Below, one piece after another: positions 8,794 through 60,503 of a stretch of 64,000 bases of DNA (the stretch's first letter is position 1; the number at the start of each line of letters is the position of its first letter). The stretch lies in the IMG/VR virus record IMGVR_UViG_3300039412_000320. One strand, 5' to 3'. Below the pieces are notes generated by a model. It worked only from the letters and a program-made list of their open reading frames with translations, searched no databases and was not told the DNA's origin. The translations under genes and the position numbers were made by a program. The stretch is from a virus.

Positions 8794-9672
8794 ATGTTTA
8801 TCTATTTAATTGTCAACCGAGAGACTGGTAAATACTACATTGGTCAGCACAAGGGGAAAGACTTAAAAAAGTACTTTCAAACCAAGTTATCGGATGCTAA
8901 ACATAATCGGGGAGGAAAGTCTCACCTATATGCTTCTATGCGGAAATATCCCTTACCTTCCTCTTGGTCTATACATGCCCTCCGCTCCGATATCCAGACA
9001 AAAGAAGAGCTTGACCAAACCGAAAAAGATTTCATTAGGTTCCTGCGGTCACAGGACCCAGAATACGGTTATAACATCTGTCGTGGAGGGGAAGGACATA
9101 CCGGACCGCTTTCTCAAGAATCCGTCAAAAAAATATCGGCTTCTCTTAAAAAGTTATGGGGTGGTTCCAAGGGTAAAGAACTCCGAAGAATAAGCGGGGA
9201 AGCATCTGACAAAAGATGGGCGCAACCGGGAAAAAAGGAACGGGCATCAGAAACAATGAGGGAAATCTGGCAGCAGCTAAAACACAGAGAACATGTTTTA
9301 GGTAAACTCAGAAACTACTGGTCAGGGATATCCGATAGTAAAAAGGCTGAAATCAGCAGTAGAATTTCTGCTACCTTGATGGGTCACTTCGTATCCGAAA
9401 AATCCCGAGTTAAAATGTCTTTAGCTCTTAAGGGAAAGCCTAGTTGGAATAAAGATAAAAATTTATCTAGGGAAACAAAGAACAAAGTATCCGTCTCGAT
9501 AACCAAACTTTGGGAAGACCCGCTATATAGGGAGCACATGGTTATAGCCGCTTCTCATCCTAAGCCATATCTTAGAAAGAGATTTTGTAAACATGGACAT
9601 GATACAAATGTTTGTGGAAGATACCCTAATGGCAACTGTCGAGGCTGCCATTTGAGATTACCTCATCTTTAG
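8794..9672 (+). CDS. GIY-YIG homing endonuclease (paralog family A) with NUMOD repeats and C-terminal Cys/His cluster
   Basis: 'MFIYLIVNRETGKYYIGQHKG...YGYNICRGGEG'; C-terminus 'CKHGHDTNVCGRYPNGNCRGCH'. Confidence 0.8.
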   Translation: MFIYLIVNRETGKYYIGQHKGKDLKKYFQTKLSDAKHNRGGKSHLYASMRKYPLPSSWSIHALRSDIQTKEELDQTEKDFIRFLRSQDPEYGYNICRGGEGHTGPLSQESVKKISASLKKLWGGSKGKELRRISGEASDKRWAQPGKKERASETMREIWQQLKHREHVLGKLRNYWSGISDSKKAEISSRISATLMGHFVSEKSRVKMSLALKGKPSWNKDKNLSRETKNKVSVSITKLWEDPLYREHMVIAASHPKPYLRKRFCKHGHDTNVCGRYPNGNCRGCHLRLPHL

Positions 9673-9687
9673 AGGGTATTATATCCT

Positions 9688-10389
9688 ATGGAGTTCACTA
9701 TTTCCAGTCCGCTCAAAGTCGAAGTTGATACCGTCATCCCCTCCATGGATTTCAAGGAGGCGTTGCCGGGGCTTATCGCCTCGGGGAAGAAGTTCGACCG
9801 TCAGACTCTCCAGAAGATTCCCTACTGCCAACTCCACCTCTGCTGCATCGGTCCAGCCGGATTAGCCGCCTGCTCCCCGAGACTGGTCTTCAAGGAGAAG
9901 GAGCGCCGGTTGAGCCGGTACATCTCCTCCGCCCCGGAGGAGCTTGCCGCCAGTGAGCGCTGGATGAAGACCGAGGGCATGTACAGAGACGTAATGGCGG
10001 AGGTCGCCGCAAAGTCCGCCCCCTCGTGGGATACCCTCAAGCCCCGGCAGAAGGTCGTTGCCAAGCTATTCTGCCTCTACAACCACATAGACGACCCCGA
10101 GGAGAGGGTGGTGGAAGCCGTAGTGCTTCTCCGGGAGGCGGCGGGCAAGGGTATCGACCCCATGCTTTGCTCTGAGTGTTGCTCCCGACTGGTCAACATC
10201 ACCCGGCGTTATCTGGGCATCCAGATTGAGGAAAAGGACAAAATTGGTGCCTCGGAGTTCTGGGAGGGGATTTACCAGACCATGGAATCCGTTTTGGACG
10301 TTTTACCCAAGGAGGAACAGCTAGTTCTGGTGCGGGAAAGGATTAGGGGTTATTCATGTACTTCAGACTGCTTCCGCAGTTGTTTTTAA
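9688..10389 (+). CDS. hypothetical protein (C-terminal segment weakly sigma region-4-like)
   Basis: ORF directly preceded by 'GGTATTATATCCT' with no SD (leaderless-type arrangement); 'LPKEEQLVLVRERIRGYS' is helix-turn-helix-like. Confidence 0.45.
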   Translation: MEFTISSPLKVEVDTVIPSMDFKEALPGLIASGKKFDRQTLQKIPYCQLHLCCIGPAGLAACSPRLVFKEKERRLSRYISSAPEELAASERWMKTEGMYRDVMAEVAAKSAPSWDTLKPRQKVVAKLFCLYNHIDDPEERVVEAVVLLREAAGKGIDPMLCSECCSRLVNITRRYLGIQIEEKDKIGASEFWEGIYQTMESVLDVLPKEEQLVLVRERIRGYSCTSDCFRSCF

Positions 10390-10448
10390 GATACTATATT
10401 TCCCCACAGAAAAGAAACTTCCCATTGTATTGGTAGGGGGAAAATTAA

Positions 10449-11435
10449 ATGGGAAGTAAGGGTACTTGTGGTGTCTATGTAATATGGGTAAAGGACGATA
10501 ACGGAAATGAAAAGCCCTATATAGGCAGCAGCAAATGGATGGAACATAGAAGGAAACAACATCTTCAAGCACTAGCTGTTGGAAAGCACCGTAACTATAA
10601 ACTTCGGCGGGCGTGGCGGGAGTACGGACCGCAAGCGTTTAGGTTTGAGGTCCTGTTTCCTTGTGAAGAGAATGAGAGATTTGTCTGGGAAGAGTTGATG
10701 ATTCGCTTCCTTGATTCTTTTCACAATGGATACAATCTAACCCCCAATGTCATGGACCTGTCAGTGATTCCCCGCTGCAACAGACCCCTGTCTGACAAAA
10801 CCAAGAAAAAATTATCTGAATTGGCATATAAAAAGTATGAGGCCGCCTCGGAGCATGAAAAGACATCTAAGTCGTTAAAGGAGTTCTGGGGTAACGCAGA
10901 AAACCGAGAATGTCTGTTAGCACCGTACCGTACTCCCGAATATAGGGCCAAGTGTAGTTGTCTTACCACCTTGTCTTGGCAGGATGCGGTCATAAGGACA
11001 CGAAGAACGGACGGTCTCAAGAAAGTTATGGCTACGACAGCTTACCGCCATAATCTTTCAGCTTCCTTGACGGGAAAGAAGAAATCGGCACAACACGCCG
11101 AGAATATAGCATTGGGGGCCAAGAAAAAATATAGAAACCCTGCGGAGAGGAAAAAAACCAGCGACTCCCTCCATACTCCCGATGCGCACGCCAAGCTATC
11201 CGAGAAATCCTTTGTGGCTTGGCAAAACCCGATTTATAGAAACCACCTAAGCGAATGCCGTCGTCTCCAATGGCTTAAACCGGGCGTGCGGGAAACAATG
11301 GGGGAAAAAATAGCGGCTGGTTTGGCCAAGCCCGGAGTACTTGAAAAACGAAACCAAAAAATCAGTGAAGGATTAAAGCGGGCGTGGGCGAGAAAAAAAC
11401 TTCTAAGGGTTAAAAGTATAGAAAACTCCCCATGA
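10449..11435 (+). CDS. GIY-YIG homing endonuclease (I-TevI/Seg-like) with NUMOD repeats
   Basis: 'GVYVIWV...YIGSS...RRKQH...FEVLF...GYN'; a class A-like motif lies at 10416-10440. Confidence 0.8.
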   Translation: MGSKGTCGVYVIWVKDDNGNEKPYIGSSKWMEHRRKQHLQALAVGKHRNYKLRRAWREYGPQAFRFEVLFPCEENERFVWEELMIRFLDSFHNGYNLTPNVMDLSVIPRCNRPLSDKTKKKLSELAYKKYEAASEHEKTSKSLKEFWGNAENRECLLAPYRTPEYRAKCSCLTTLSWQDAVIRTRRTDGLKKVMATTAYRHNLSASLTGKKKSAQHAENIALGAKKKYRNPAERKKTSDSLHTPDAHAKLSEKSFVAWQNPIYRNHLSECRRLQWLKPGVRETMGEKIAAGLAKPGVLEKRNQKISEGLKRAWARKKLLRVKSIENSP

Positions 11436-11463
11436 AATCAAATTTAGGGCGTATTATACTTGT

Positions 11464-13281
11464 ATGGGCGACCCTTCTATTGTCATTGAGCAGAATAAGG
11501 AAAGAAGTCTTCCGTTCAAGGAACTCAATACAGAGGCATCCCCTCAAATCCGGGACCACTTCCCCTTTCCGACCATCCGGGCATCGCAGGAGGTAGCTCT
11601 TCAGGTGATAGAAAGGGCTATCAAGGAAGGCAAGAAATACATCATAATGGAACTCCCGTGCGGGGTCGGGAAATCCGGGATTAGTGTTGCGGCTGGCTCC
11701 CTTGCCAAGACCTTCAAAACGCCAGCAGGATACCAGCAGGGGGCATACGTGCTTTCCCCGCAAAAGGTCCTCACAGAACAGTATGTTAATGACTTCGGTG
11801 ATATGGGCCTTGTTGAGCTTAAAGGAAAGGCCAACTACACCTGCCCCGGATATACTTGGGAAGAGACGGGCGAGCTTATGAACTGCGAGGACGCCGCTTT
11901 TAACTACGAAGAGCAGCACAAGGAGGTAGGGGGATGCGGGGGATATAAGCCCGCCAAAGAGGCATTTGTCAACAGTCCACTCGGAGTCACCAACTTTGCC
12001 TATTACCTAAGCGAGACAGCCCACGCCAGTCAGCTTAAGCCCCGTACCATGTTAATTTTAGACGAAGCTCATAATACAGAACAGCACATTCTCTCCCTTG
12101 CCAGTATTGAGATAACCCGATATCGCTGTGAGGAAGCAAGTCTTGATTTTAGCTCCGTACCCTTTATCACGCCCGATGCCGTGGGCATAGGAGAAGCCCT
12201 TGACTGGCTTAACCAGACATTCCGTCCTGCCGCTACAGAAGCCATCCAAAGACTCAGCTTTAACGCCGAGGAACGCCGGGATATGGGAATGCAGAAGGAA
12301 GCTTCAAAGCTTAAGCGGCGGGCAAGCGGCATGGAGAGATTCATCGGACAGCTTGACTTGTTTCTTAAGTCGGAGAACCGCAAGGATTGGATGGTATGGT
12401 CGGAGTCGGAAATCGAGAGGTGCCCCCAGTGCTGTGTGAAGCAAAAATACTCAGGGAAGAAGGAGTGCTGGAAGTGCCACAGCAGGCTCCCCCTGACCCC
12501 GGCAAAGATGATTATCAAGCCACTGACGGCTACCTTGTTCGCCGAGCCGGCCTTGTTCAGCAAGGCGGACAAGGTTATAATGTTGTCCGCCACTATCCTT
12601 GACTTCAATACTTTTTTGCGTAACCTTGGAATCAACCGAAATGACGCTGTATGCGTGGCGGTCCCGAGTGAGTTCCCGGTATGCAACCGCCCCATTTACT
12701 ACCGCCCAGTAGGGAACATGAACTACGGAAACATTGAGGCAACTCTTCCCAAGATGGCGGAGGAAGTGGGTAGGATAATGCGGAAGTACCCCAACAACAA
12801 GGGTATCGTGCATTGCGTGAGCTTCCGAGTGACTAATTACCTTATAAAGTACTTGACAGAAGGAGGGCTTGGCGGACGCATCCTTACCCATTCGGGAGAA
12901 GATACTGGGTCAAGGGAAAGGGTGGTGGAGGAGCATATTGCTTCGTCTTCTCCCTCAGTACTCTTTAGCCCAAGTCTGTCAGAGGGGCTGGATCTCAAGG
13001 AGGACCTGTCAAGGTTCCAGGTTATAGTCAAGATTCCCTATAAGGCATTAGACGTGTATGTCAAGGCACGGATGGCGCTTGATATGGACTGGTATAACCT
13101 ACAGGCGGCAATCTCGCTTGTCCAAGCGACGGGAAGGTCGGTAAGGTCGATGACTGATAGGGCAGACACCTACATCCTTGATTCCGGGTTTGAATCATTC
13201 ATAAAGCGAGCGGGGCATATGCTGCCAGAATGGTGGGTGGAGGCAGTAAAATTTCCCGGTGAATATACGATTGATTGGTAG
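11464..13281 (+). CDS. Rad3/XPD/DinG-family DEAH-box DNA helicase
   Basis: 'RASQ', Walker A 'ELPCGVGKSG', 'LILDEAHN', CxxC...CxxC insert and motif VI 'QATGRSVRS'. Confidence 0.75.
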   Translation: MGDPSIVIEQNKERSLPFKELNTEASPQIRDHFPFPTIRASQEVALQVIERAIKEGKKYIIMELPCGVGKSGISVAAGSLAKTFKTPAGYQQGAYVLSPQKVLTEQYVNDFGDMGLVELKGKANYTCPGYTWEETGELMNCEDAAFNYEEQHKEVGGCGGYKPAKEAFVNSPLGVTNFAYYLSETAHASQLKPRTMLILDEAHNTEQHILSLASIEITRYRCEEASLDFSSVPFITPDAVGIGEALDWLNQTFRPAATEAIQRLSFNAEERRDMGMQKEASKLKRRASGMERFIGQLDLFLKSENRKDWMVWSESEIERCPQCCVKQKYSGKKECWKCHSRLPLTPAKMIIKPLTATLFAEPALFSKADKVIMLSATILDFNTFLRNLGINRNDAVCVAVPSEFPVCNRPIYYRPVGNMNYGNIEATLPKMAEEVGRIMRKYPNNKGIVHCVSFRVTNYLIKYLTEGGLGGRILTHSGEDTGSRERVVEEHIASSSPSVLFSPSLSEGLDLKEDLSRFQVIVKIPYKALDVYVKARMALDMDWYNLQAAISLVQATGRSVRSMTDRADTYILDSGFESFIKRAGHMLPEWWVEAVKFPGEYTIDW

Positions 13282-13290
13282 ATACCAATA

Positions 13291-13312
13291 AGGATATAAA
13301 TCTATCCTTGTA
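13291..13312 (+). terminator. 7-bp stem hairpin AAGGATA-taaatc-TATCCTT followed by a weak T-rich tract, then a class B-like promoter
   Basis: Read directly downstream of the helicase stop. Confidence 0.3.
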
Positions 13313-13339
13313 TTCAATTGTACTGGAGGAAGTCAAACC

Positions 13340-13798
13340 ATGAAAACCATCAAAATGACCCGCACCATCCGTAGAGAGATTAACGGGATGTTCATAACCA
13401 TAGGACCGGAGGGTCTCACCTTTCGGCAGAAGCGCCAGCCGAAAGAGGATACACTCCGTCTGACGTGGGAACAGGCACTTGCAAATGCGGTTGTCGAAGA
13501 ACAAAACAGACCTACCCCGCTTGTTGAAATCAAGCCGGTACCTGACGACCCGGCACAGGTTCCCATGTTCCCCGAGCTTTCTCAACCCCTGACGAATGCT
13601 CACTTGACAGGATTCAAGCGGCTCCTACCTGAGTACGACATCCCGGCTTGCGGCCCGGAGGTTGGGGTTCACATGACGCACTGCAACATGGGAGGGTATG
13701 TTGGGGTGTGTAAGTATGGCGAGCATGACACCTGTCCCGCTCTGGAGACCCCCAAAATCGACGTGGACGAGGTTCTCAGTACCGAAGGAGACGTATGA
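13340..13798 (+). CDS. hypothetical protein
   Basis: ORF with SD 'GGAGGAAG' upstream; its stop overlaps the next start. Confidence 0.5.
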   Translation: MKTIKMTRTIRREINGMFITIGPEGLTFRQKRQPKEDTLRLTWEQALANAVVEEQNRPTPLVEIKPVPDDPAQVPMFPELSQPLTNAHLTGFKRLLPEYDIPACGPEVGVHMTHCNMGGYVGVCKYGEHDTCPALETPKIDVDEVLSTEGDV

Positions 13799-14094
13799 AG
13801 GAAAAGACTCCACTAGAAAAAGCGCAGGAGAAGGTTGTCTATATCCATGTCGCCCTCACCCTCAACGTTGACGAGGGGTCCGAGGTCTACATGCGCCCAC
13901 ATAACCCCTTCTTCGAGTTCAGCAATGACTTCTTCAAGCGGCTCCAGAACCAAATGAAAACCCGTTTGAAGTTTGCAGAAATGGGGATAGAGGACTTCAC
14001 TGCCGTGGAGACATTCGTCATGATGGTCCTCGGAGAATCCGAAGTACGCAGTATTGGAATACCAGAGGGTAAACCATGTCCGAAGAAAAAATGA
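13795..14094 (+). CDS. hypothetical protein
   Basis: ATGA start/stop overlap with neighbours. Confidence 0.45.
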   Translation: MKEKTPLEKAQEKVVYIHVALTLNVDEGSEVYMRPHNPFFEFSNDFFKRLQNQMKTRLKFAEMGIEDFTAVETFVMMVLGESEVRSIGIPEGKPCPKKK

Positions 14095-14318
14095 CCGATT
14101 GCGTTGACATTGACCATCCCCTGCCATGGGAAACACACCCCTGCGGGTGTGTGGTGGACGGCAACTACCAGATTGTGCAGGAGTGCCCGGACCCCGGCTG
14201 CATGACGAAGGCATACCTCGTCAACGCCGGGGGTTGTCACGTGTGCGGAGCGGCGGATACACGGGCGGTACAGGCGAAGGCTCAGAGGGAGCCGGTGAAG
14301 AAAGAATACGTGAACTGA
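14076..14318 (+). CDS. hypothetical Cys-rich small protein
   Basis: 'CGCVVDGNYQIVQECPDPGC...CHVCG'. Confidence 0.45.
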   Translation: MSEEKMTDCVDIDHPLPWETHPCGCVVDGNYQIVQECPDPGCMTKAYLVNAGGCHVCGAADTRAVQAKAQREPVKKEYVN

Positions 14319-14611
14319 TGCGTAGGTCCCGCCCGAGGTATCCAAAGCCGCAGGAAGTGCTGTCCTACAAGACGGCTCTGGAGCAGACCATCCCCGTGGA
14401 TACGCCCATGGTGATGGGCTGGAGGGAAAGTGCCAAGCTTATCCCTAACTGGCGCTTTCAGGGCCTCACAGGGGGCGTAGAATGGGTTGTAGACGTATAC
14501 TGTGGAGGTTACTGCTACGTTTCCGTGGGTAGGTACAACGAACGGGTTAAGTCCATAATGGCCGCTTTGAAATTTCTGCGTGCCCACCTTGCGGCAAGGG
14601 GAGTATTGTGA
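14318..14611 (+). CDS. hypothetical protein
   Basis: ATG at 14318 overlaps the TGA of the upstream gene; the upstream part of the tracked ORF 14126-14611 overlaps another gene out of frame. Confidence 0.4.
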   Translation: MRRSRPRYPKPQEVLSYKTALEQTIPVDTPMVMGWRESAKLIPNWRFQGLTGGVEWVVDVYCGGYCYVSVGRYNERVKSIMAALKFLRAHLAARGVL

Positions 14612-14645
14612 TATCCAGTTTTGAAACTATAGCACTCTATAGTGA

Positions 14646-15215
14646 ATGGAAACAAAGGAGTGCTGTATGCGAACCTTGGCTAGTGAAAAAAAGATAATTT
14701 CTCCCGGCACAAAGATGGGAATGCTTACCGTTTTGGGCTTGGTTGAGGGGAAAACATCCTTTGGGTATAGGGTTTATCGCTGTCAATGTGATTGTGGAAA
14801 AATGGTAGAGAGGGGAAGCGGGAGGCTCCGTGATTTCCGGTGTCGTGTAAGTTGTGGAAATCACTGGCATAGACCTCTTGGTGCGGCTGCGGCTCACGTT
14901 GTTTATTTGAATTACCAAACGAATGCTAAGCGTAGGGGGCATGTATTTGAGTTATCGGAGGACGAGTTTTTAGCGGTCTGTGAGCAGGATTGTCACTATT
15001 GCGGGGCTAAACCCAAGAGCGGAAACTGGAAGCACTTTAAGCGGTGCTTCGGGGATTTTTCATATAATGGTATAGATAGGAAGGATAACTCTTTGGGGTA
15101 CATCATAGGAAATTGTCTTCCTTGCTGTGGGACGTGCAATTACTCCAAGAGGGGACTGTCTTATCAAGAATACATAAGTCAGTGTCAAAGGGTTGCAATC
15201 CTTCACCCTTGCTAG
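14646..15215 (+). CDS. HNH homing endonuclease
   Basis: 'CHYCGAKP...YNGIDRKDNSLGYIIGNCLPCCGTCNYSK'. Confidence 0.8.
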   Translation: METKECCMRTLASEKKIISPGTKMGMLTVLGLVEGKTSFGYRVYRCQCDCGKMVERGSGRLRDFRCRVSCGNHWHRPLGAAAAHVVYLNYQTNAKRRGHVFELSEDEFLAVCEQDCHYCGAKPKSGNWKHFKRCFGDFSYNGIDRKDNSLGYIIGNCLPCCGTCNYSKRGLSYQEYISQCQRVAILHPC

Positions 15216-15236
15216 TGGATTTTGGTATTATATAAT

Positions 15237-15968
15237 ATGATAAAAAGCTCAAATACAGCTAATGGCACCCCTCCAGTTTTAGTTCCTCTTTCCACGTTAG
15301 AAGACTTAAAGAGAGTACTCTTCGTGCAAAAAACTATTGCACAGGAATGTCGCCGGGAGTTGATAGCGACCGCCACGGCGAAAGAGATTGCCACGGGCGA
15401 GGTATCCGCCCCGGAGGAAATGCGCCGGATAATCAAGGCGCAGACCGCCCTGCTGGAGAAGTACGCCAAATATCCCACCCTGTCGGAGTTCATGTTCCAC
15501 CCCGACCTTGCCGGGTCCACCCGGTGGGGAGCGACCTTTGGGGTGACTATCCTCGTCCGGGCGCTCATCCTTGACCCCATCAAAGCAGCTATGCAGGCGT
15601 TTGCTCCCTTCATGCGGAGTATCTACCTTCTGCTCATTAAAGAGTTAGACAACCCTACCCACGAGTATCTTATCGAGCCATTGGAAGAGAACATCAAGTT
15701 CCGGGTAACTATGGGCGAGAACGGTGAGGAAATCACCGACGAGCGCAGCACTCTGCTCACCCGTAAGCTCCTTTACCAAGTCACGGAAAGCCTGTTGATG
15801 ATAAGTGCCCAGTACGGCATCATTGGAGCCACGCCGGGAGGGTTCCAGATAACTGATATGGGTCGCCGGGTTTTACTCCATCTTGTTGACTCTTCAGTTT
15901 TTTTAGAAGAACTTGTGGAGGCCCACAAACGTTTTCAATCTGAAAAGCCGAAACTTAATTTTATATGA
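15237..15968 (+). CDS. hypothetical protein
   Basis: ATG directly after 'GGTATTATATAAT' (class B -10-like, no SD). Confidence 0.45.
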   Translation: MIKSSNTANGTPPVLVPLSTLEDLKRVLFVQKTIAQECRRELIATATAKEIATGEVSAPEEMRRIIKAQTALLEKYAKYPTLSEFMFHPDLAGSTRWGATFGVTILVRALILDPIKAAMQAFAPFMRSIYLLLIKELDNPTHEYLIEPLEENIKFRVTMGENGEEITDERSTLLTRKLLYQVTESLLMISAQYGIIGATPGGFQITDMGRRVLLHLVDSSVFLEELVEAHKRFQSEKPKLNFI

Positions 15969-16012
15969 CGACTGGAAAAATGAACTTTCTAAATCCTTTA
16001 TAGGGATTATTC

Positions 16013-16780
16013 ATGTTTATTTATCTTATCGTCAACCATGTGACCGGCAAATACTATGTCGGTCAGCATAAGGGGAATAACCTTAAAAAGTATCTTCAAA
16101 CAAAAATGTCTTCTGCTAGGTATCGTCACAGGGGAAACTCTCATCTTTTCAATTCAATGCGTAAGTATCCTCAGTCTACTTTATGGTCCATCCATGCTCT
16201 TCGTTCCGATATACAGACTCGTGAGGAGCTTGACGAGACCGAAAAAGACTTCATCCGGTTCTTACGGTCGCAAAACCCTGAGTACGGCTACAACATATGC
16301 CGGGGAGGGGAGGGACGAACTGGACCACATTCTGAAATCTCTCGCAAGAAGACCTCTAATTCAATTAAAAAAGCATGGATGATACCAGAAATACGAGAGA
16401 GACTTATAAGTAATAGACGAGGTAAGACCCACAATCGAGGATGTCTTATTCCATATGAAGCACGGATTCGGGGTGGAAAAATTGGAGGAAGTATAAAAAG
16501 TGATGTAAAAATCCAGCATTGTAAAAATATCGCCCATTTAGGGGGGATTATTGGGGGACTTGCTACTAATGCTACCACTAATGGTCGTAAAAGTAGAGGG
16601 GGTCGTGCCAGCGTTCTTAAAATGACTACAGAAACAAGGATTCTCGCAGGTACCAATGGAGGTAAAGTGACCGCCAGTAAACCGGGATTTTTGATTGAAA
16701 TAGGACGGATTGCTCGGTGTAAACACTGGCAAATAGGCCGTGGTAAGCCGTGTATATGTGGTCATCACAACAGCCTTTAG
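16013..16780 (+). CDS. GIY-YIG homing endonuclease (paralog family A) with C-terminal C..W.I.RGKPC.CG.H module
   Basis: 'MFIYLIVNHVTGKYYVGQHKG'; 'CKHWQIGRGKPCICGHH'; class A motif at 15983-16005. Confidence 0.8.
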   Translation: MFIYLIVNHVTGKYYVGQHKGNNLKKYLQTKMSSARYRHRGNSHLFNSMRKYPQSTLWSIHALRSDIQTREELDETEKDFIRFLRSQNPEYGYNICRGGEGRTGPHSEISRKKTSNSIKKAWMIPEIRERLISNRRGKTHNRGCLIPYEARIRGGKIGGSIKSDVKIQHCKNIAHLGGIIGGLATNATTNGRKSRGGRASVLKMTTETRILAGTNGGKVTASKPGFLIEIGRIARCKHWQIGRGKPCICGHHNSL

Positions 16781-16791
16781 TTCTCTTTTGT

Positions 16792-16950
16792 ATGAAAGTT
16801 TTCCCCGCTCACGGTCCCCTCGTCGTCCTGCTGGTCCTTCTCCTCATGCTGACCGCTGACGACTTCATTTTTCCCTCCAGCACTGTCGTTGTATCTATAA
16901 TTGTTGTCTATGGTTTAATAAGATTCTTCCAGTGGCTCTGGAAGCTATAA
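16792..16950 (+). CDS. possible small hydrophobic membrane protein
   Basis: 52 aa with two hydrophobic stretches; no clear SD. Confidence 0.25.
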   Translation: MKVFPAHGPLVVLLVLLLMLTADDFIFPSSTVVVSIIVVYGLIRFFQWLWKL

Positions 16951-16973
16951 ATTTCTCCCAAAACGGCCATTTT

Positions 16974-16995
16974 CGTGGTATACTGTAGGTGGAAG
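16974..16995 (+). promoter_or_regulatory. Class B promoter-like motif CGTGGTATACTGTAGGTGGAAG (extended -10 TGGTATACT + SD-like)
   Basis: A near-identical copy lies at 17233-17255. Confidence 0.5.
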
Positions 16996-17014
16996 CTTGA
17001 CCCACGGGTCAAGT
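16996..17014. promoter_or_regulatory. Operator-like palindrome CTTGACCCACGGGTCAAG between the class B -10 and the SD of the next gene
   Basis: Read directly. Confidence 0.4.
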
Positions 17015-17225
17015 GGGGCAATTTAAGCAAGGGGACAATATGATTACAGCCAAGCGTTTGAAGAAGGCCGGTTTCTCCTATGTGGGAAGCCAGAAATGTG
17101 GCATGTACAAGAAGGTCTATTGGGTGGACCCGGTGGACCACGAGGTTATTCCTCAGTATCTCGCCGTCCTTTACCTGCAAGAGCGCAATCGAGCCGCCAA
17201 GCTCCAGAAAAACCTTCAAAAATGA
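17013..17225 (+). CDS. hypothetical small basic protein (alternative start 17040)
   Basis: SD 'GGGGA' before ATG 17040. Confidence 0.45.
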   Translation: MGQFKQGDNMITAKRLKKAGFSYVGSQKCGMYKKVYWVDPVDHEVIPQYLAVLYLQERNRAAKLQKNLQK

Positions 17226-17259
17226 CCGGTCACGTGGTATACTGAGAGTGGAGGGAAAC

Positions 17260-17508
17260 ATGGCAAATGCAATCACCCTTTACATTCCATCTGACGCCCT
17301 ACGGCTACCTGATAACGCCCAATGGGGCAACCGCTTCGAGATTCATTCCTCAAGCTCCGACCGTTGCTATACCATCGCACAGAACAAAGACAAGCGCCAT
17401 TGGGGTTGCTCCCGCCCCGGATGGAAGCGCTGGAGACGTTGTCACCATCTCAAGGAACTCGGCATCCCCGGCAACGAAATTCCCTTCGAGGCAAAACTCC
17501 ATGCCTAA
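17260..17508 (+). CDS. small Cys/His-rich protein, translationally coupled to the J-domain gene
   Basis: ATG 6 nt after 'GGAGGG'; 'CYTIAQNKDKRHWGCSRPGWKRWRRCHH'; its stop TAA overlaps the ATG of the next gene (ATGCCTAA). Confidence 0.5.
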   Translation: MANAITLYIPSDALRLPDNAQWGNRFEIHSSSSDRCYTIAQNKDKRHWGCSRPGWKRWRRCHHLKELGIPGNEIPFEAKLHA

Positions 17509-17854
17509 AGCCAAGAAAGGCTTTTTGGACGGCTATAAGACCTACGACCCCGACGCCGAGGGCTACGGCTCCCCGGCGCAGTGGCGGGCGGCGTTTGCCC
17601 ACCGGATGTCGCAGGAAGAGGCCGAGGAAGTGTTCGTGGGCAAGCAGTACGGCCCGTGGGCGGTCCTTGGCGTTCCCGAGGGAAGCCCATGGAGGGTCGT
17701 CAAGAGCGCCTTCCGCCGTCTGTCGATGGCTTGCCATCCTGACCGCTGCATCCTCAATAACATGACCAAGGCCGAGGCGGACGAAAAGTTCAAGGAACTG
17801 ACCGCTGCTTTCACCATAATTGACAACGAGTATACTCGAAAGGGGTTAAAATGA
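17501..17854 (+). CDS. J-domain (DnaJ-like) protein
   Basis: C-terminal 'WAVLGVPEGSPWRVVKSAFRRLSMACHPDR...KAEADEKFKELTAAFTII' carries the HPD motif and helices II/III. The track's longer ORF from 17267 has a low-complexity out-of-frame-looking N-terminus. Confidence 0.6.
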   Translation: MPKAKKGFLDGYKTYDPDAEGYGSPAQWRAAFAHRMSQEEAEEVFVGKQYGPWAVLGVPEGSPWRVVKSAFRRLSMACHPDRCILNNMTKAEADEKFKELTAAFTIIDNEYTRKGLK

Positions 17855-18132
17855 GCGACGAAACGCATCGGGTTACGGGCACGTTCATGACGAGGGACCT
17901 AGAAGCTGACACACAAAGCGGTCGGCCCGGTCATCGGCTCGTCATGGTGTACGGGGTCTTGAGCGTCCCCGAGGGTGCTCTCAAGGGCGAGCACCAGTAC
18001 GTTACCGTGGGCGATGCTCACGAGGGCGTGATGATGCTCAGCCTGCTGACTGACCGGGGAATTGACCGGTCGAATCTCAGCATCGGTAACTCCCCGAGTG
18101 GGATGTACCATGAGGCGATTTGGAGTGTGTAA
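17851..18132 (+). CDS. hypothetical protein
   Basis: ATGA overlap with upstream gene. Confidence 0.45.
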   Translation: MSDETHRVTGTFMTRDLEADTQSGRPGHRLVMVYGVLSVPEGALKGEHQYVTVGDAHEGVMMLSLLTDRGIDRSNLSIGNSPSGMYHEAIWSV

Positions 18133-18154
18133 AACGTTAATGAGGCGTTAGTTT

Positions 18155-19321
18155 ATGGAATTATCTCCGACTCCATATACCCCCGAAACACAAATTCCCG
18201 GAACGCAGCTTATATACCTGCGTGAAAGCAATAGAAGGTCCAATGCGGGAAAACGGATGGTATGGGTACGATGCATCCTTCACGGAAATGAGTTCGAGGT
18301 CGTCTTGTCTCACCTAAAGTCCGGGCACACAAAGGGTTGCTTTCAAAATGAAAAGTGTATTCTTCATGATTTCATTCCGGGAAACCTATACCCCGGAACA
18401 GAGATAACATGTGTTCGAGTGGTGGGAACAAGGAAAGGGCAGACCATCGTTGCTGTTTGTTGCAAACACAAAGAATTTGAGGTTGCTTTGAAAGACCTTA
18501 AAAGCGGAAACACGAAAAGGGGATGTTGGGAGTGCGGGGTAGCCAGCCGGGCGGACAAGCAACGTAAATCGTCGGAAAGCATCCTTGTCGAATTAAAAAG
18601 TAGGTGGGGCAGTGAAACCTATGACTACTCCAAGGCTATATTTTACGGAACCCATGTCCCCGTCACCGTCATCTGCCATAAAACCGATAATAACGGGGTG
18701 GAACACGGAGGGTGGTCTGTTACTCCTCACAATCACATGAAGACCGGTTGTCCCAAATGCGGGGATGATGTCGGGGCTGAAAAGCGTAAATTCACTGAAA
18801 AAGAGTTTAAGGATAAGGTCAAGGAAGTTTGGGGAGACCAATACGACCTAAGTGAGCTTGACTACATCACTGCTCAAGGGTGGATTTACCCCATTTGTCC
18901 TAAATCAGGGCACGGGAAGTGGATGACGAGGGCGTACAGCTTTTTACAAGGGCACGGGTGCCCTGTATGCAGTGAGTCTAAGGGAGAAAGGGCTATACGT
19001 GAATATCTTGAGAAGATGGGGATTGCTTTTTTCCAAGAACAAACTTTTGGTGGTTGCCGAAACCACCTGCCCTTACACTTTGACTTTTTCCTCCCGGATA
19101 TTAAGACTCTGATTGAATTTCAAGGGGTGCATCATTATTGTCCGACTCGATTTGGTGGAATAAATCAGCAAGTAGCGGAAGAAAACTTTTCCAAACAACA
19201 GGAGCGAGATGTACTTAAACGACAGTGGGTAGCTGACAACGGTTTCCGCTTGATTGAAATTCCACATACAATTCAATTTGATTCCATTCCTTCTTATCTT
19301 GAGAAACTTCTAGTCATCTAG
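18155..19321 (+). CDS. putative nuclease (PD-(D/E)XK/Vsr-like C-terminal domain) with tandem N-terminal Zn-ribbon/'KSGxTK' modules; homing-endonuclease-like
   Basis: Duplicated 'GNEFEVVLSHLKSGHTKGC' / 'HKEFEVALKDLKSGNTKRGCWEC'; 'GCPKCG', 'GHGCPVCS'; C-terminus 'EYLEKMGIAFFQEQTF...FDFFLPDIKTLIEFQGVHHY'. Confidence 0.45.
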   Translation: MELSPTPYTPETQIPGTQLIYLRESNRRSNAGKRMVWVRCILHGNEFEVVLSHLKSGHTKGCFQNEKCILHDFIPGNLYPGTEITCVRVVGTRKGQTIVAVCCKHKEFEVALKDLKSGNTKRGCWECGVASRADKQRKSSESILVELKSRWGSETYDYSKAIFYGTHVPVTVICHKTDNNGVEHGGWSVTPHNHMKTGCPKCGDDVGAEKRKFTEKEFKDKVKEVWGDQYDLSELDYITAQGWIYPICPKSGHGKWMTRAYSFLQGHGCPVCSESKGERAIREYLEKMGIAFFQEQTFGGCRNHLPLHFDFFLPDIKTLIEFQGVHHYCPTRFGGINQQVAEENFSKQQERDVLKRQWVADNGFRLIEIPHTIQFDSIPSYLEKLLVI

Positions 19322-19406
19322 TATTATCCAGTATGGACACGCAGTTTAGGCCGGGCATAACCCCATCCGAACATCTTCACAAATCAATCCTATCTGATTC
19401 ATTTAT

Positions 19407-20219
19407 ATGGTTCTAGTTCATCTATACCGGTATCCCCATCCGACTATCCCCAACCAGTGGCTTTATGTTGGTCAGGGAGTAAATCGGGATAAACAACACC
19501 GGTCCGGGGCATCATCCTTTGGTCGCCGATTTAGGAAGTTGTTTCCAGACACTCACCTCCCCGAGCCTGTTAGGTGGACTGAACCCGCCTCAAACCATCT
19601 TGAGGCCAATGAAGCAGAGACTATTGCTATGTTTAGATATCATACTTGGCGAGGGTATCAAGGAGGGATGAATCTGACATTACCCGGCACAAAAGATTAT
19701 GAACACTTAGGGAAAATTGGAGGAGCAGTAGTAGGTCGTATAACTAAGGAAAACGGTACTGGACTTTTCCGTCTTACATCGGAACAATTAAGCCAAGCGG
19801 GGCGTAAAGGTGGACTTATTGGAATTCGCAATATGCCCCGAGAAGCGAAGGTTCGTGGTGGTAAAACTTCGGGTCCAGATAACTTAAAAAAGATGACAAA
19901 AGAAGCAAAAATACGAGGTTGTTACCTTGGTGGTAAATCTTCCGGTTCAATTTCAGGTAAACGATGTAAAGAAAACGGTCATCTAGCAAAAATCTGTCAC
20001 CTTGGGGGGTTAATTCGGGGTCCTATTCAGGGTAGAAAGAATGTAGAAAGCGGACTTCTATCCCGTATTTGTGCGGATGGAGGAAGGATTAGTGGTAGAA
20101 AAATGGCGAAGGTTCCCGGCTATATGTCAGGACTTGGTCGTATTAGTGCTTGCTTACGTTGGAGGATTCCTCGTGGCAGACCTTGTACTTGTGGAAAACA
20201 CTTGCCGCCTGAAACCTAG
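19407..20219 (+). CDS. degenerate GIY-YIG-like protein sharing the C-terminal GG-repeat and RGRPCTCGKH module with the GIY-YIG paralogs
   Basis: 'LYRY...WLYVGQG...YQGGMN'; 'CLRWRIPRGRPCTCGKH'. Confidence 0.55.
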   Translation: MVLVHLYRYPHPTIPNQWLYVGQGVNRDKQHRSGASSFGRRFRKLFPDTHLPEPVRWTEPASNHLEANEAETIAMFRYHTWRGYQGGMNLTLPGTKDYEHLGKIGGAVVGRITKENGTGLFRLTSEQLSQAGRKGGLIGIRNMPREAKVRGGKTSGPDNLKKMTKEAKIRGCYLGGKSSGSISGKRCKENGHLAKICHLGGLIRGPIQGRKNVESGLLSRICADGGRISGRKMAKVPGYMSGLGRISACLRWRIPRGRPCTCGKHLPPET

Positions 20220-20230
20220 TATTATTCCTT

Positions 20231-21007
20231 ATGGGTGTTCGATTCAGGCCGGGAGTATCAATTAGTGGGTATCCTCCCATCACACAACTTCTCCTTAAAA
20301 AATCATCCAAACCCTTCAACATTCTTGTCGGTGAGGACCATTTTCAAATACGTTTCGCCGAACACATCCTTGACCTAAAACACCGTATTGTAGAGAGCGT
20401 TGTCGATGCGGACCTCTTAACGGGAGAACCCTGTCTTTTGTGTGTCACGACCATCCGGGTCGTGGACATTTCCGAAAAAGTCAAAGACAAAACAGCCATT
20501 TGGTCTATCGGACCTTTGGAAAAAGGGAGTCCGGGAGCAATGGCAATCGTGAAATATGCTGTTTCTATTTTGAAAAAGGAAGTGCCTGACAAAGATACCT
20601 TAAAGAAGATTGCTGATGCTCTTACCCAAGAGGGCATCGAAGACATCCCTATTGCCATCTGGAACGCCGTGGGGTTACTCTCAGGACCGGCCCCCGGCGA
20701 GTATGTACGCTGGCTGGAGCCGTGGGAAAGCCATCGAAGCTGGCTCCGCCCGGAGGTAGACCCCGGATACCGGCTAAACACCCTTTTCCGGGACCTGTCG
20801 GCTTATGCCTTCATTAGTGCAGGCGAGGAGGAGAGCCTCAAGAAGGCCGGGCTATTCCTGTCGCCCTCTAAGCTTAAGTACCTGTCAAACCTTAAGCTGG
20901 ATTCCGTGCGGGTGCATAATACGCTCCGGGAATTGTCCCAATGGCGTATCAAACGCCCGGACCCATATCCTTGTGTATTGAAGATTTCGGCCATATGGCA
21001 ACCGTGA
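20231..21007 (+). CDS. hypothetical protein
   Basis: ATG directly after 'TAGTATTATTCCTT'. Confidence 0.5.
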   Translation: MGVRFRPGVSISGYPPITQLLLKKSSKPFNILVGEDHFQIRFAEHILDLKHRIVESVVDADLLTGEPCLLCVTTIRVVDISEKVKDKTAIWSIGPLEKGSPGAMAIVKYAVSILKKEVPDKDTLKKIADALTQEGIEDIPIAIWNAVGLLSGPAPGEYVRWLEPWESHRSWLRPEVDPGYRLNTLFRDLSAYAFISAGEEESLKKAGLFLSPSKLKYLSNLKLDSVRVHNTLRELSQWRIKRPDPYPCVLKISAIWQP

Positions 21008-21046
21008 AAAAACAACTTTCTATCCCTTAATCAGGAGGAAGTTGTT

Positions 21047-21742
21047 ATGTTCATTTATCTGATTGTTAATCATGATATCGGCAAATATTATGCCGGTCAA
21101 CATAAGGGGAATAATCTTAAAAAGTATCTTCAACAGAAATTTAACCATGCTCAAAGGGGGATTTCTGGCCAATCTTACCTTTATAATTCAATGCGGGCAC
21201 ACCCAGACTCCAAGGTCTGGTCCATTCATGCCCTTCGTTCGGATATCCAAACAAAAGAAGAGCTTAACGAAACCGAGAGGGATTTTATCAAATTTCTGCG
21301 GTCACAAGACCCCGAGTATGGGTACAACATTTGTCGGGGCGGAGAAGGATTCACCGGACCGCATACGGAGGAGACTCGAAAAAGGATATCTCACATTGTT
21401 AAAAATGCATGGAAGACCCCGGAAAAGCGAAAAAATATGCAGTGTAATGGTAATCATCAGTCTCGTGAAGTTAGGGTTCGTAACGGTCAAAAATTAGGTA
21501 AGTGGGGTGTGGAAACCGGGCACCTATTAAAGATTTCTTCACTTGGTTCTCTCGCACAACCTCGTGAGGACAAAGTGAGGGCAGGAAAAATTGGTATTCA
21601 GAGAGGACTTTTGAAACGGACCAAAGAACAAATGACCCTTGATGGTAAGAAAGGGGGATTGTTGGGAGGAAAAATCTCTTGTTGCAAACGTTGGAATATT
21701 GACCGTGGGAAACCGTGTGTTTGTGGAAAGCACCTAAAATAG
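21047..21742 (+). CDS. GIY-YIG homing endonuclease (paralog family A)
   Basis: 'MFIYLIVNHDIGKYYAGQHKG'; 'CKRWNIDRGKPCVCGKH'; class A motif at 21014-21038. Confidence 0.8.
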   Translation: MFIYLIVNHDIGKYYAGQHKGNNLKKYLQQKFNHAQRGISGQSYLYNSMRAHPDSKVWSIHALRSDIQTKEELNETERDFIKFLRSQDPEYGYNICRGGEGFTGPHTEETRKRISHIVKNAWKTPEKRKNMQCNGNHQSREVRVRNGQKLGKWGVETGHLLKISSLGSLAQPREDKVRAGKIGIQRGLLKRTKEQMTLDGKKGGLLGGKISCCKRWNIDRGKPCVCGKHLK

Positions 21743-21756
21743 AATTTTATAAAAAA

Positions 21757-22140
21757 ATGAGTATTATATCTCGTGGAAAGGAAGTCATGGGAAGTTCTCG
21801 CATAGGGCTTGAAATCCTAATTGAAAAAGTCAGGCACTCTTTGGGTGTGAGGAAGAATAAAGCAAGGGAAATTGTCTTTGCCGTCGCCTCCTGCCTCGAA
21901 GAAACCCTTAAGGATAACCTCGGTACTGATGGGTTTTCCCTCAAGCTTCACAGTTTCGGAAAGTTCACCGTCCGGCATAGGGCGGCGAGCCTACGGAAAA
22001 TTCCCCTCACGGGGAAAGTCAGCATGACGAGTGAAAAACACAAAATCAAATTTGTCTCACTGGGAGAGTTGCGCAAGCTGGAGAAAGTCAAGCCCCTGCC
22101 CGCTGCCCCCCCGATTTCTTTACCAATGCAGACCGGTTAA
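21757..22140 (+). CDS. HU/IHF-like DNA-binding protein
   Basis: 'FGKFTVRHRAASLRKIPLTGKVSMTSEKHKIKFVSLGELRK' matches the HU arm/beta region. Confidence 0.6.
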   Translation: MSIISRGKEVMGSSRIGLEILIEKVRHSLGVRKNKAREIVFAVASCLEETLKDNLGTDGFSLKLHSFGKFTVRHRAASLRKIPLTGKVSMTSEKHKIKFVSLGELRKLEKVKPLPAAPPISLPMQTG

Positions 22141-42120: not shown

Positions 42121-42155
42121 AAAACAACTTCCTAATCCTTAATCGGGAAGAAGTT

Positions 42156-42905
42156 ATGTTCATTTATCTCATTGTTAACCACGAGACCGGTAAGTACTAT
42201 GTCGGTCAGCATAAGGGGAACAATCTAAAGAAATATCTTCAGCAGAAGTTTCACCACGCCCAAAGAGGTATCTCAAACCAATCTCGCCTTTATCAGTCTA
42301 TGCGAGCACACTCAGACCCCTCTTCTTGGTCCATACACGCCCTCCGGGCCGACATCACTGACCGAGAAGAGCTTGACCAAACTGAACGGGATTTCATCAA
42401 GTTCCTGCGGTCGCAGGACCCTGAGTATGGGTACAATATATGCCGGGGTGGGGAGGGAAGAACCGGACCCCTTTCAGATGAAACTCGTAAGAAGATTGGA
42501 GAAGGTAATAAGGCTGCTTGGGCTAATCCAGAGACTAAACAGTCCCGCATTGACAGCATACGGAAATGTATGTGTAACCGAGAGGTGTCTCAGGAAACAA
42601 GACAAAAATTGAGCAATGCATTAACGGGCAGAGAAGTTCCAATTGAGGAAAGAATCAAGATGAGTAAAGTAGCGAAAGGAAGAAAGCAGGCTCCCGAATG
42701 CACTGCTAAAATATCCGCATCCAATCGTGGTAGAAAACGGTCGGAAGAATTCCGTGCTAAGTGCAGACAGAGGGTTGTGTCAGATGAGACTAGAGCCAAA
42801 CTTAGTAAAATAGCGAGTGCGAGACGGCTTTCTCCCGAGATACGTGCCAAAATCAGTAAAAGCACACAGGGAAGACAACGGGATAAGCTAGGACGTTTGC
42901 GCTAA
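42156..42905 (+). CDS. GIY-YIG homing endonuclease (paralog family A) with NUMOD repeats
   Basis: 'MFIYLIVNHETGKYYVGQHKG'; class A motif at 42126-42147. Confidence 0.8.
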   Translation: MFIYLIVNHETGKYYVGQHKGNNLKKYLQQKFHHAQRGISNQSRLYQSMRAHSDPSSWSIHALRADITDREELDQTERDFIKFLRSQDPEYGYNICRGGEGRTGPLSDETRKKIGEGNKAAWANPETKQSRIDSIRKCMCNREVSQETRQKLSNALTGREVPIEERIKMSKVAKGRKQAPECTAKISASNRGRKRSEEFRAKCRQRVVSDETRAKLSKIASARRLSPEIRAKISKSTQGRQRDKLGRLR

Positions 42906-42932
42906 ACAATCAGTATTATACTGTGGAGGACC

Positions 42933-59279: not shown

Positions 59280-59336
59280 AGAAAACTTCCGGGCGCATGG
59301 TTGAAGGACCCCAAATCCGGTAATATTCATAGGTAG

Positions 59337-59618
59337 GTGACCATGAAGCCGAAGGGAGTAATAATCAAAGGTGTGCGATTCCGCCCCGGCGAGGTGGACT
59401 GGGAAGATGCTTATTCGGAAGGCAGAAAACCCCTCCCCGATTTTGAGAAGGTTAAGCTGGGCGGGGACTTTATCGGTTCCAAGATTACCGCAGTCGGTCT
59501 TATCGCCAAGATAGGACACTACTTAGTCATCATAACGGAGAAGAATGAGGAAGCGGACGAGTACGATTACACCGTCATTCCCCTTCACGCTAAGACCACT
59601 ATTAGGTTTCACAGGTAA
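59337..59618 (+). CDS. hypothetical protein
   Basis: ORF. Confidence 0.4.
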   Translation: MTMKPKGVIIKGVRFRPGEVDWEDAYSEGRKPLPDFEKVKLGGDFIGSKITAVGLIAKIGHYLVIITEKNEEADEYDYTVIPLHAKTTIRFHR

Positions 59619-59651
59619 CTGAACTATGGGTTCCTTTATAGGGGGCTTATT

Positions 59652-60503
59652 ATGTTCATATACCTTATCGCTAATCACATCACAGGAAAATACTACATCG
59701 GTCAGCATAAGGGTAGAGACCTCCGCAAATATCTTCACAAAAAATTTTGGGAAGCGGAACATGGTTTAGGCGGGTCCTCCCATCTTTACGCCGCTATAAG
59801 AAAATATGGAAGAAGTAGTTTCAGCATTCATGCTCTCCGTTCGGATATCCAAACAAAAGAAGAGTTAGACCAAGTCGAAAAGGATTTTATTATTTTTCTA
59901 AAAGCCCAAGACCCTGAATATGGTTACAACATCCGTCGAGGAGGAGAGGGATTTACCTCAGAAGAAGCAAAGGAAATTGCCAAAAATCGACTAGCCGACC
60001 CCACATTTATTACCAGATTAACTATGGCGTTGAAAGAAGCATGGAAAGACCCTGAAACTCAAGCCAAACATTCCGAGTCTATCAAAAAATTATGGCAAGA
60101 TTCGGAGTTCCGTGACAAAGTTGTTAAAAAACTGAGGAGCCCAGAAGTAAGAGATAGAAAATCTAAGGCTAATAGGAAAAGATTTTCTACTTATGAGGCT
60201 CGTACTAAACAAGCCAAAGCAGTAAATGCGGGGTGGTCTGATTTAGAGCTTCGCACCAGACAATCTGAGTTAGTTAAGAAGCTATGGTCAGACCCCCAAA
60301 CTCGATATAAAATGATGGAGGGGGTTAAGAAACGAGCAGCTACCATAAGTTTGAATGGTAAAAAAACTATGTCCAAGCCAGGACACCTGTCTTATATGAC
60401 TAAAAAAGGGCATTGCCAACGCTGGAACATCAACCGTGGCAAACCTTGTACCTGCGGATATCATCCTTTGCTTATGCTCAAGGTAAATGAGAGAACCACT
60501 TAA
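59652..60503 (+). CDS. GIY-YIG homing endonuclease (paralog family A) with C-terminal C..W.I.RGKPC.CG.H module
   Basis: 'MFIYLIANHITGKYYIGQHKG'; 'CQRWNINRGKPCTCGYH'; class A motif at 59631-59646. Confidence 0.8.
   Translation: MFIYLIANHITGKYYIGQHKGRDLRKYLHKKFWEAEHGLGGSSHLYAAIRKYGRSSFSIHALRSDIQTKEELDQVEKDFIIFLKAQDPEYGYNIRRGGEGFTSEEAKEIAKNRLADPTFITRLTMALKEAWKDPETQAKHSESIKKLWQDSEFRDKVVKKLRSPEVRDRKSKANRKRFSTYEARTKQAKAVNAGWSDLELRTRQSELVKKLWSDPQTRYKMMEGVKKRAATISLNGKKTMSKPGHLSYMTKKGHCQRWNINRGKPCTCGYHPLLMLKVNERTT

Follow-up and report, generated by a model that had tools for sequence, protein, structure and literature searches.

Why would one stretch of viral DNA hold five dispersed genes that begin almost identically and then go separate ways? 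The stretch in question is a 64,000-nucleotide (nt) part of the virus record IMGVR_UViG_3300039412_000320, analysed over its whole length and called the window here. The genes, named by their start positions, are 8794 (8794-9672), 16013 (16013-16780), 21047 (21047-21742), 42156 (42156-42905) and 59652 (59652-60503), all on the plus strand, and each encodes a conserved N-terminal nuclease domain followed by a variable C-terminal half. A first-pass annotation had taken them for recently duplicated GIY-YIG paralogs and had pointed to a Cys-rich module at the C-terminus of some of their products. In our judgement they are probably free-standing genes for homing endonucleases, similar in kind to T4 seg, and are carried by an uncultured phage of ~338 kb. 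During co-infection, each enzyme would cut the allele that lacks its gene, near the insertion site, and double-strand-break repair would then copy the homing endonuclease gene into the cut allele. The site of cutting would be set by the C-terminal half, through a NUMOD3 array, G-rich helical repeats, W-x-D-P-E repeats or a terminal Cys/His motif, and the exchange of such modules via the conserved 5' coding DNA would be how one catalytic domain gains new targets.

The window comes from a large genome (~338 kb) of an uncultured phage. The 283-amino acid (aa) product of 59652-60503 and a 258-aa product (20231-21007) are both encoded on the 338,351-bp contig k141_400892 of ENA assembly ERZ27250039, and independent JGI, ENA and Logan assemblies contain both on many shorter contigs as well; the protein encoded by 59652 recurs unchanged on 20 ENA and JGI contigs. 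Over as much as 20.8 kb, the 338-kb contig and two JGI contigs depart from the window at 14-16 positions. A megablast search with positions 8000-22000 against 50,697 deposited phage genomes returned no similar DNA.

Nuclease domains of the five genes and of gene 19407

All five open reading frames (ORFs) begin with MFIYLI(V/A)N, and the first 103-110 residues of their products share 60-81% amino acid identity. The near-identical start described in the first-pass annotation is thus that of a shared N-terminal domain in real ORFs. A profile built from the five N-termini recovers each of them at E-values of 1e-61 to 1e-67, and hmmsearch places a sixth, more distant paralog at 2121-2768 on the plus strand (E 1e-28). 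We refer to this group as family A.

The assignment of these proteins as GIY-YIG enzymes is upheld both by their matches to PHROG homing-endonuclease families and by a structural match to the catalytic domain of I-TevI. The five genes, together with 2121 and 10449, match phrog_314 at E ~1e-16 to 1e-25 (6e-20 for 8794, 6e-16 for 16013, 5e-16 for 21047 and 5e-21 for 59652), with further matches to phrog_7168. The five also match the group I intron endonuclease model TIGR01453, with E-values down to 2e-11, under its cut-off. The AlphaFold2 (AF2) model of the 16013 product is confident for residues 1-87 only, with an N-terminal predicted local distance difference test score (pLDDT) of 73-87. In a Foldseek search this N-terminal model matched the I-TevI catalytic domain (1mk0/1ln0) at E 7e-4 with a probability of 1.0, a template modelling score of ~0.7 on the target and 23-25% identity. 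As modelled, the N-terminal domains of 16013 and of gene 19407, described below, both have the GIY-YIG alpha/beta fold. Residues Y4, Y15, G17, H19, Y27, K31, E77 and N94 are 100% conserved among 106 family-A sequences, and the GIY and YIG tyrosines, together with the positions of the metal-binding Glu (E75 in I-TevI) and of the Asn (N90), are retained in family A and in the second family to which 19407 belongs.

Several observations weigh against this assignment. The Pfam model PF01541 scores 14.8 bits for 8794, 20.3 for 42156 and 17.1 for 2121, all below its gathering cut-off of 22.6 bits, and 16013, 21047, 59652 and 19407 have no PF01541 match at E <=0.1. The C-terminal half of the 16013 model has a pLDDT of <50. 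Most pertinent to catalysis, the canonical Arg is not evident in family A, because a HMMER alignment, itself weak (E 0.06), sets the invariant Tyr27 opposite the catalytic Arg27 of I-TevI and Lys31 opposite His31 (codons 16091-16093 and 16103-16105 of 16013, plus strand). The chemistry of family A may differ from that of I-TevI, or the alignment may be off. The complete conservation of Tyr27 and Lys31 across the 106 sequences would also suit proteins that are catalytically altered or inactive, the canonical Arg being missing, and that persist as DNA-binding proteins. We consider this quite improbable, since the other motif residues (Y4, Y15, E77 and N94) are invariant, the I-TevI alignment is weak, and the family is large and positionally polymorphic, as expected of active mobile elements.

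Gene 19407 (19407-20219, plus strand) is a GIY-YIG gene of a second type, 'LYRYPHP...YVGQG', which we call family B; it encodes G-rich repeats and, at 20151-20201, the terminal tail discussed below. The first-pass annotation regarded it as degenerate. It is instead an intact member of family B, with catalytic residues invariant in 61 sequences and an N-terminal domain modelled by AF2 at pLDDT 95-98. The invariant positions in the family-B alignment are Y7, Y20, G22, R27, H31, E71 and N89, and Y7, Y20, R27, H31, E71 and N89 closely match Y6, Y17, R27, H31, E75 and N90 of I-TevI. When the 19407 model was compared with the PDB using Foldseek, the top 11 matches were all GIY-YIG domains of UvrC or I-TevI, with probabilities of 0.54-0.89. 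Fold searches with this model against the PDB and BFVD returned GIY-YIG domains only, and nothing for the tail or the repeats. Compared with each other using hhalign, the N-termini of families A and B show a weak relationship (probability 32%).

A search with gene 19407 yields 135 homologs at E <=1e-3, of which many span the full length; none of the 135 has a Pfam annotation on the N-terminal domain or the tail, and one carries NUMOD3. Against the deposited phage genomes, tblastn found no match to 19407, and matches to the N-terminal domain only, at 25-36% identity, for 16013. Differences in ORF length between loci, seen for 19407 and for 18155, proved to be a gene-caller difference only.

Distribution among relatives, age and recombination of the copies

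The relative IMGVR_UViG_3300041809_000571 (316,945 bp), sampled as loci L010, L028, L030 and L032, is collinear with the window, mostly at 87-97% identity. All five genes, 10449 and the segment containing 18155 and 19407 are absent from this relative as precise indels, the flanks of which align at 87-96%, except for the helicase gene to the right of 10449 (65%). With end points taken from the ends of BLAST high-scoring segment pairs, gene 8794 lies in a segment (8743-9675) of 933 nt in the window and 11 nt in the relative (L032). The corresponding lengths are 833 nt and 6 nt (L028) for the segment holding 16013 (15957-16789), 734 nt and 0 nt (L028) for that holding 21047 (21009-21742), 890 nt and 122 nt for that holding 42156 (42034-42923), and 923 nt and 26 nt (L030) for that holding 59652 (59598-60520). 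Gene 10449 lies in a segment (10399-11538) of 1140 nt in the window and 129 nt in the relative, and genes 18155 and 19407 share one (17860-20604) of 2744 nt and 733 nt. At the site of 42156, L010 and L011 have a 394-aa gene directly after the clamp-loader gene and are without 42156. No family-A or family-B gene was found in ~60 kb of syntenic DNA of the relative, and in L033, a more distant relative (72% identity), a family-A gene occupies the site corresponding to that of 2121.

Each of the five genes occupies its own intergenic site between other ORFs, and an Rfam scan of the window was empty, group I introns included, as was a transfer RNA scan. With the genes placed between ORFs and no group I intron model matching, they are therefore free-standing. 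At some sites the neighbouring DNA is diverged: the first 100 nt to the left of 16013, at the end of the left-hand gene, has 62-70% identity to the relative, and the last ~110 nt of the clamp-loader gene beside 42156 are unalignable or strongly diverged. It is possible that this divergence is a signature of co-conversion or of target immunity. Two points count against reading the indels as the outcome of homing. Flank divergence is elevated at 16013, 42156 and 10449 but not at 8794, 21047 and 59652, and genes missing from a single relative lineage might in principle have been lost there, not gained elsewhere.

The same pattern of presence and absence has been described for the seg and mob genes of T4 (PMC2988022). 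The genes could in addition have been kept as aids to the phage, by cutting competing phages (marker exclusion) or host DNA, or by acting as site-specific repressors; this reading overlaps with homing and is not exclusive of it. The strong purifying selection on the genes and the ~18 endonuclease-like elements in 64 kb would fit a benefit of this kind, as would the marker exclusion caused by T4 seg enzymes and the second role of I-TevI as a repressor (PMC2988022). Precise presence and absence between close relatives is, on the other hand, a prediction of selfish homing alone, and we regard phage benefit as a rather unlikely reason for the persistence of these genes.

Two further features of the relative concern insertion and replacement at other sites. 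The helicase gene 11464-13281, beside the 10449 insertion, is ~65% identical to the relative's copy, and the surrounding genes are 90-95% identical, which suggests allele replacement at this locus. A locus search with this helicase in viral contigs found nothing. The relative also has insertions of its own elsewhere (L030 7768-10423; L028 4545-5104, 15869-16460 and 2422-3661). The homolog of the 1085-aa gene 60582-63839 holds one of 2.6 kb, and the DNA polymerase gene one of ~590 nt.

How old are the copies? The first-pass annotation gave ~80% DNA identity over the first ~300 nt and described the genes as recently duplicated. Pairwise alignment of the first 330 nt of the five copies gives 60-76% nucleotide identity. 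A repeat search recovers dispersed direct repeats of 93 nt at 74-84%, 195 nt at 63-73% and 211 nt at 61-77% (4/5 copies), the longest exact run between any two copies is 9-27 nt, and about half of the codons for the same amino acid differ between copies. Synonymous divergence (dS, Nei-Gojobori) is saturated or undefined in eight of the ten pairs and 1.9-3.9 in the other two. Nonsynonymous divergence (dN) is 0.13-0.37, with dN/dS of 0.06-0.07 in the two pairs for which dS could be estimated. The N-terminal domain of each copy has its nearest metagenomic homolog at 77-94% amino acid identity, compared with 74-83% within the window. Given the saturated dS, the low dN/dS and the closer homologs outside the window, the copies are, on this sequence evidence, old lineages of a single family that selection at the protein level has kept alike, and not recent duplicates. 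As old lineages under strong purifying selection, their dispersed 'DNA repeat' is therefore conserved catalytic-domain coding sequence.

Recent duplication within the genome, with ~300-bp repeats driving homologous recombination and rearrangement, can draw on the fact that the repeats are real and co-oriented and that some recombination between alleles takes place within the conserved region. The low nucleotide identity, the short exact runs, the saturated dS and the closer relatives of every copy outside the window all contradict such an origin. Deletions between the repeats, a predicted mark of rearrangement in relatives, did not appear either: gene order is collinear wherever loci were sampled, and shows neither deletions nor inversions between copies. 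We therefore hold this explanation to be very unlikely. The narrower proposal that the copies are substrates for recombination is weak as originally worded, because exact shared runs reach at most 27 nt, and no rearrangement between copies was seen; what survives of it is recombination between related alleles within 16013.

Between the window and the 338-kb contig (L018), 16 differences are found in 20.8 kb, and 15 of them fall within the 67 nt of 16213-16279 (plus strand), in the conserved catalytic-domain DNA of 16013. The same patch is present in L017 and L020, and none of the in-window paralogs is its donor. An 870-bp contig (L034, encoding protein P0007) has the sequence of the window in the upstream gene and on into 16013, for the first ~200 nt of that gene. 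At 16232-16261 it matches the allele of the 338-kb contig exactly and at 16262-16291 to 90%, and it then continues into a different, unrelated C-terminal half of NUMOD3 type. At the sequence level this indicates that crossovers within conserved catalytic-domain DNA swap DNA-binding modules at one locus, and module exchange at 16013 agrees with the mixed C-terminal types across family A. Tempering this conclusion, the L034 allele is known from one 870-bp contig. Elsewhere in the window, L019 shows 7 differences in 18.4 kb, 6 of them within 52 nt (28627-28678), ~440 nt downstream of the intein described below, in what looks like another recombination-like patch.

An alignment of upstream regions revealed a ~40-nt 5' leader, GAAAAAnnAACTTTCTAAAnCCTTTATAGGGG...ATG, common to the five family-A genes (8754-8793, 15974-16012, 21008-21046, 42117-42155 and 59613-59651, plus strand). 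The leaders fall inside the window-only inserted segments, and a similar sequence also precedes the HNH-like genes 24646 and 53582; at the 8794 leader, repeat family D6 begins 10 nt before the ATG. The leader could be a promoter or translational control element belonging to the genes themselves.

C-terminal repeats and the terminal Cys/His tail

Among the window GIY-YIG genes tested, true NUMOD3 (PF07460) is present only in 2121 (two motifs, 64 bits), 8794 (33 bits) and 42156 (a repeat array, 50.7 bits). The product of 42156 is without a Cys tail, and that of 8794 ends in a distinct Cys/His motif, CKHGHDTNVCGRYPNGNCRGCH (CKHGH...C...CxGC; 9586-9669), which is also found in homologs P0061 and P0104. 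The GG-rich repeats said to precede the terminal tail were confirmed as G-rich helical repeats in 16013, as short G-rich repeats in 21047 and as G-rich repeats in 19407, whereas 59652 has W-x-D-P-E-x-R repeats. In homologs the G-rich unit spans ~23 residues with the pattern GG(R/K)I-x-G(R/K)KNVESG(H/Q)L-x-x-I. We collected 335 distinct units, which occur in 1-7 strict copies per protein; those of the window genes are more degenerate. The AF2 model of 19407 shows the units as helices, with moderate confidence. The candidate identity of this repeat as NUMOD3 was rejected, as hhalign of the 335 units against 70 NUMOD3-like units gave a probability of 0.2%. Classified by regular expressions, 120 family-A C-termini include 14 with the tail described next (type 1), 24 with a sister tail (type 2), 33 with a NUMOD3-like motif only and 47 others.

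The type-1 tail reads CKHWQIGRGKPCICGHH in 16013 (16718-16768), CKRWNIDRGKPCVCGKH in 21047 (21683-21733), CQRWNINRGKPCTCGYH in 59652 (60414-60464) and CLRWRIPRGRPCTCGKH in 19407 (20151-20201), all on the plus strand; these are exactly the four genes to which the first-pass annotation had assigned it. The consensus of 201 distinct tails is C-x-R-W-N-I-x-R-G-K-P-C-x-C-G-x-H. As the tail search pattern demanded C0, C11, C13 and H16, these are found in 100% of the 201; outside the pattern, W3 is conserved in 99%, R7 in 97%, G8 in 86%, K9 in 90%, P10 in 85% and G14 in 97%. The tail lies <=10 aa from the C-terminus in 159 of the 201. In the 61 family-B proteins C249, C260, C262 and H265 are invariant, and the same four are invariant in a separate alignment (A3). 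The tail thus presents four conserved Cys/His positions of ligand type at fixed spacing.

When 1.84 billion representative proteins were searched exhaustively with the tail profile, 182 clusters were obtained at E <=1e-3, of which three (P0124, P0194 and P0242) are WD40 false positives. The exhaustive search was used in place of a word-indexed search with a 40-aa tail profile, which, owing to the size of the database, gave three matches only. Pfam domains accompanying the tail in 139 tail-bearing proteins are HNH (9), GIY-YIG (8), NUMOD3 (4), HNH_3 (2), HNH_5 (2), Endonuclease_7 (1) and several helix-turn-helix (HTH) domains. In P0233 the tail is N-terminal, ahead of a region that, judged by eye, is EndoVII-like.

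Pfam placed nothing on the tail itself in any of the 139 proteins, and NCBIfam likewise placed nothing on it. The C-terminal halves of 16013 and 19407 gave no Pfam match at E <=10, NUMOD3 included, and hmmsearch with the tail profile against 177,635 PDB sequences gave no match at E <=10. A tblastn search with the tail consensus against the 50,697 deposited phage genomes returned chance-level matches only, and 185,579 species-representative genomes of bacteria and archaea, when scanned, gave 38 pattern matches, none of which was confirmed. As far as these libraries show, the description of the tail as a novel C-terminal Cys module is borne out, with no match to NUMOD3 or to described zinc-finger families in Pfam, NCBIfam or PDB sequences. 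The sister type-2 tail, H-x-R-W-H-V-x-R-G-x5-C-x2-C, has four ligand-type residues of its own (H0, H4, C14 and C17). In 61 homologs, drawn from both GIY-YIG families (P0011-P0116 and P0278-P0371), it stands in place of the C-x-R-W-N-I tail, and it has no Pfam annotation.

The 19407 model has a helix (239-253) at whose end the first Cys and the Trp of the tail lie, and R-G-R-P-C-x-C-G-x-H forms a loop. The tail is most likely a small zinc knuckle with C0, C11, C13 and H16 as its putative ligands, and from its sequence we infer that this knuckle would offer the basic W/R-G-K-P loop to DNA as a terminal anchor. On the opposite side stand the tail's pLDDT of only 78-88 and the fact that the model is without zinc. 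Because the tail is near-invariant across enzymes with necessarily different targets, a generic anchor is more likely than a sequence reader. The core of the AT-hook is R-G-R-P. Like an AT-hook, the tail has an R-G-(K/R)-P core with flanking basic residues; unlike it, the tail core sits between Cys ligands, with C-x-C-G-x-H directly after. We treat the resemblance as a lead only.

A tail of 17 residues that is almost invariant across proteins with different targets argues against sequence reading, and I-TevI's zinc finger is no reader but a distance and redox element (PMC2988022). Both points would suit a tail that is no DNA-recognition element at all and serves as a fold-stabilising cap, as a redox switch like the I-TevI zinc finger, or as a protein-protein contact. 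The tail nevertheless travels with nuclease domains of different superfamilies and with NUMOD3 and HTH modules, and its basic residues R2, R7 and K9 are conserved. We give such non-recognition roles perhaps a one-in-several chance, and keep the DNA anchor as our preferred reading.

Endonuclease load of the window and comparison with known systems

The window contains ~18 endonuclease-like elements. Nine are GIY-YIG genes (2121, 8794, 10449, 16013, 19407, 21047, 42156, 52182 and 59652) and eight are HNH or EndoVII-like genes (14646, 18155, 24646, 34691, 38365, 53582, 54126 on the minus strand, and 54601). The last is an intein (27153-28185) within the ORF 27056-29326 for a 756-aa protein, with Hom_end_hint and a faint LAGLIDADG_3 match; this segment of 1033 nt is missing from the relative at L028. 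Summed, the endonuclease-like ORFs come to ~13.5 kb, or ~21% of the window, and nearly all of these elements are missing or replaced in the relative IMGVR_UViG_3300041809_000571, which is 90-95% identical. An apparent HNH polymorphism between strains was traced to a gene-caller difference. In T4, 15 such elements make up 11% of the coding potential (PMC2988022).

Two other features of the window were observed alongside. The ORF 6454-8748 encodes a 764-aa protein, probably a fibre protein, that consists largely of collagen-like G-Y-T-G-P-x-G triplet repeats with a DNA periodicity of 9 nt. The motif GTATTATA occurs in 9 copies in the window, against 0.88 expected, at 9676, 11451, 15225, 21761, 29943, 40496, 42913 and 52074 on the plus strand and 56974 on the minus strand. 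In the cases for which positions were compared, a gene on the same strand starts a short way downstream of it. Four copies follow immediately on a homing endonuclease gene, and the relative retains the motif too. GTATTATA is a candidate phage promoter element.

Free-standing GIY-YIG endonucleases are well-known selfish genes, and the core of the finding is in that respect ordinary. What is undescribed, as far as the libraries show, is the terminal Cys/His module, common to nucleases of different superfamilies, and the G-rich repeat. GIY-YIG domains are already in use as programmable nuclease heads, and new compact DNA-anchoring modules are therefore of practical interest. The alleles of 16013 add population-level evidence that conserved catalytic-domain DNA is a crossover point for swaps of target-recognition modules; such swapping has been proposed for these modular enzymes but, to our knowledge, has rarely been seen directly. 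Endonuclease genes account for about one fifth of the 64-kb region and for most of the gene-content difference from the relative, and can thus strongly shape large phage genomes.

We tentatively advance a broader proposal, which we find possible but doubtful when all its parts are taken together. Family A would belong to a homing-endonuclease toolkit known only from metagenomes, as a large GIY-YIG lineage with an invariant Tyr/Lys pair where all characterised members have the catalytic Arg/His. Recombination in its conserved 5' coding DNA would couple it to interchangeable DNA-binding cassettes, one a new Cys-Cys-Cys-His zinc knuckle bearing an AT-hook-like R-G-K-P loop and another a new GG-x-G-RKNVESGHL array. 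This array, with 1 to 7 or more copies of its ~23-residue repeat, might determine how long the recognised site is.

Known systems resemble the window genes in different respects. NUMOD modules likewise follow GIY-YIG or HNH domains as short DNA-binding motifs in repeated form, although the Pfam NUMOD3 model matches neither the tail nor the G-rich repeats. I-TevI, the endonuclease of the T4 td intron, provides the best structural match of the catalytic domain (1mk0/1ln0) and is also modular, with a small four-ligand zinc module in its DNA-binding half (PMC2988022). Unlike the free-standing window genes, I-TevI is intron-encoded; its zinc finger is in the linker, followed by a helix and an HTH, whereas the window tail is terminal, and the tail profile finds nothing in PDB sequences, the I-TevI DNA-binding domain included. 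The seg genes of T4 (SegA-G) differ in being distant in sequence (Pfam SegE_GIY-YIG, E 0.02-0.09). The window is also denser, with 9 GIY-YIG genes, 8 HNH or EndoVII-like genes and an intein in 64 kb, compared with 15 elements in all of T4; its C-terminal modules are distinct, and family A has Tyr at the position aligned with the catalytic Arg. In organisation, the likeness to the seg genes is close: they too are several paralogous GIY-YIG genes in intergenic positions between conserved genes, present in some related phages and absent from others, and each joins an N-terminal nuclease to a variable C-terminal DNA-binding part (PMC2988022).

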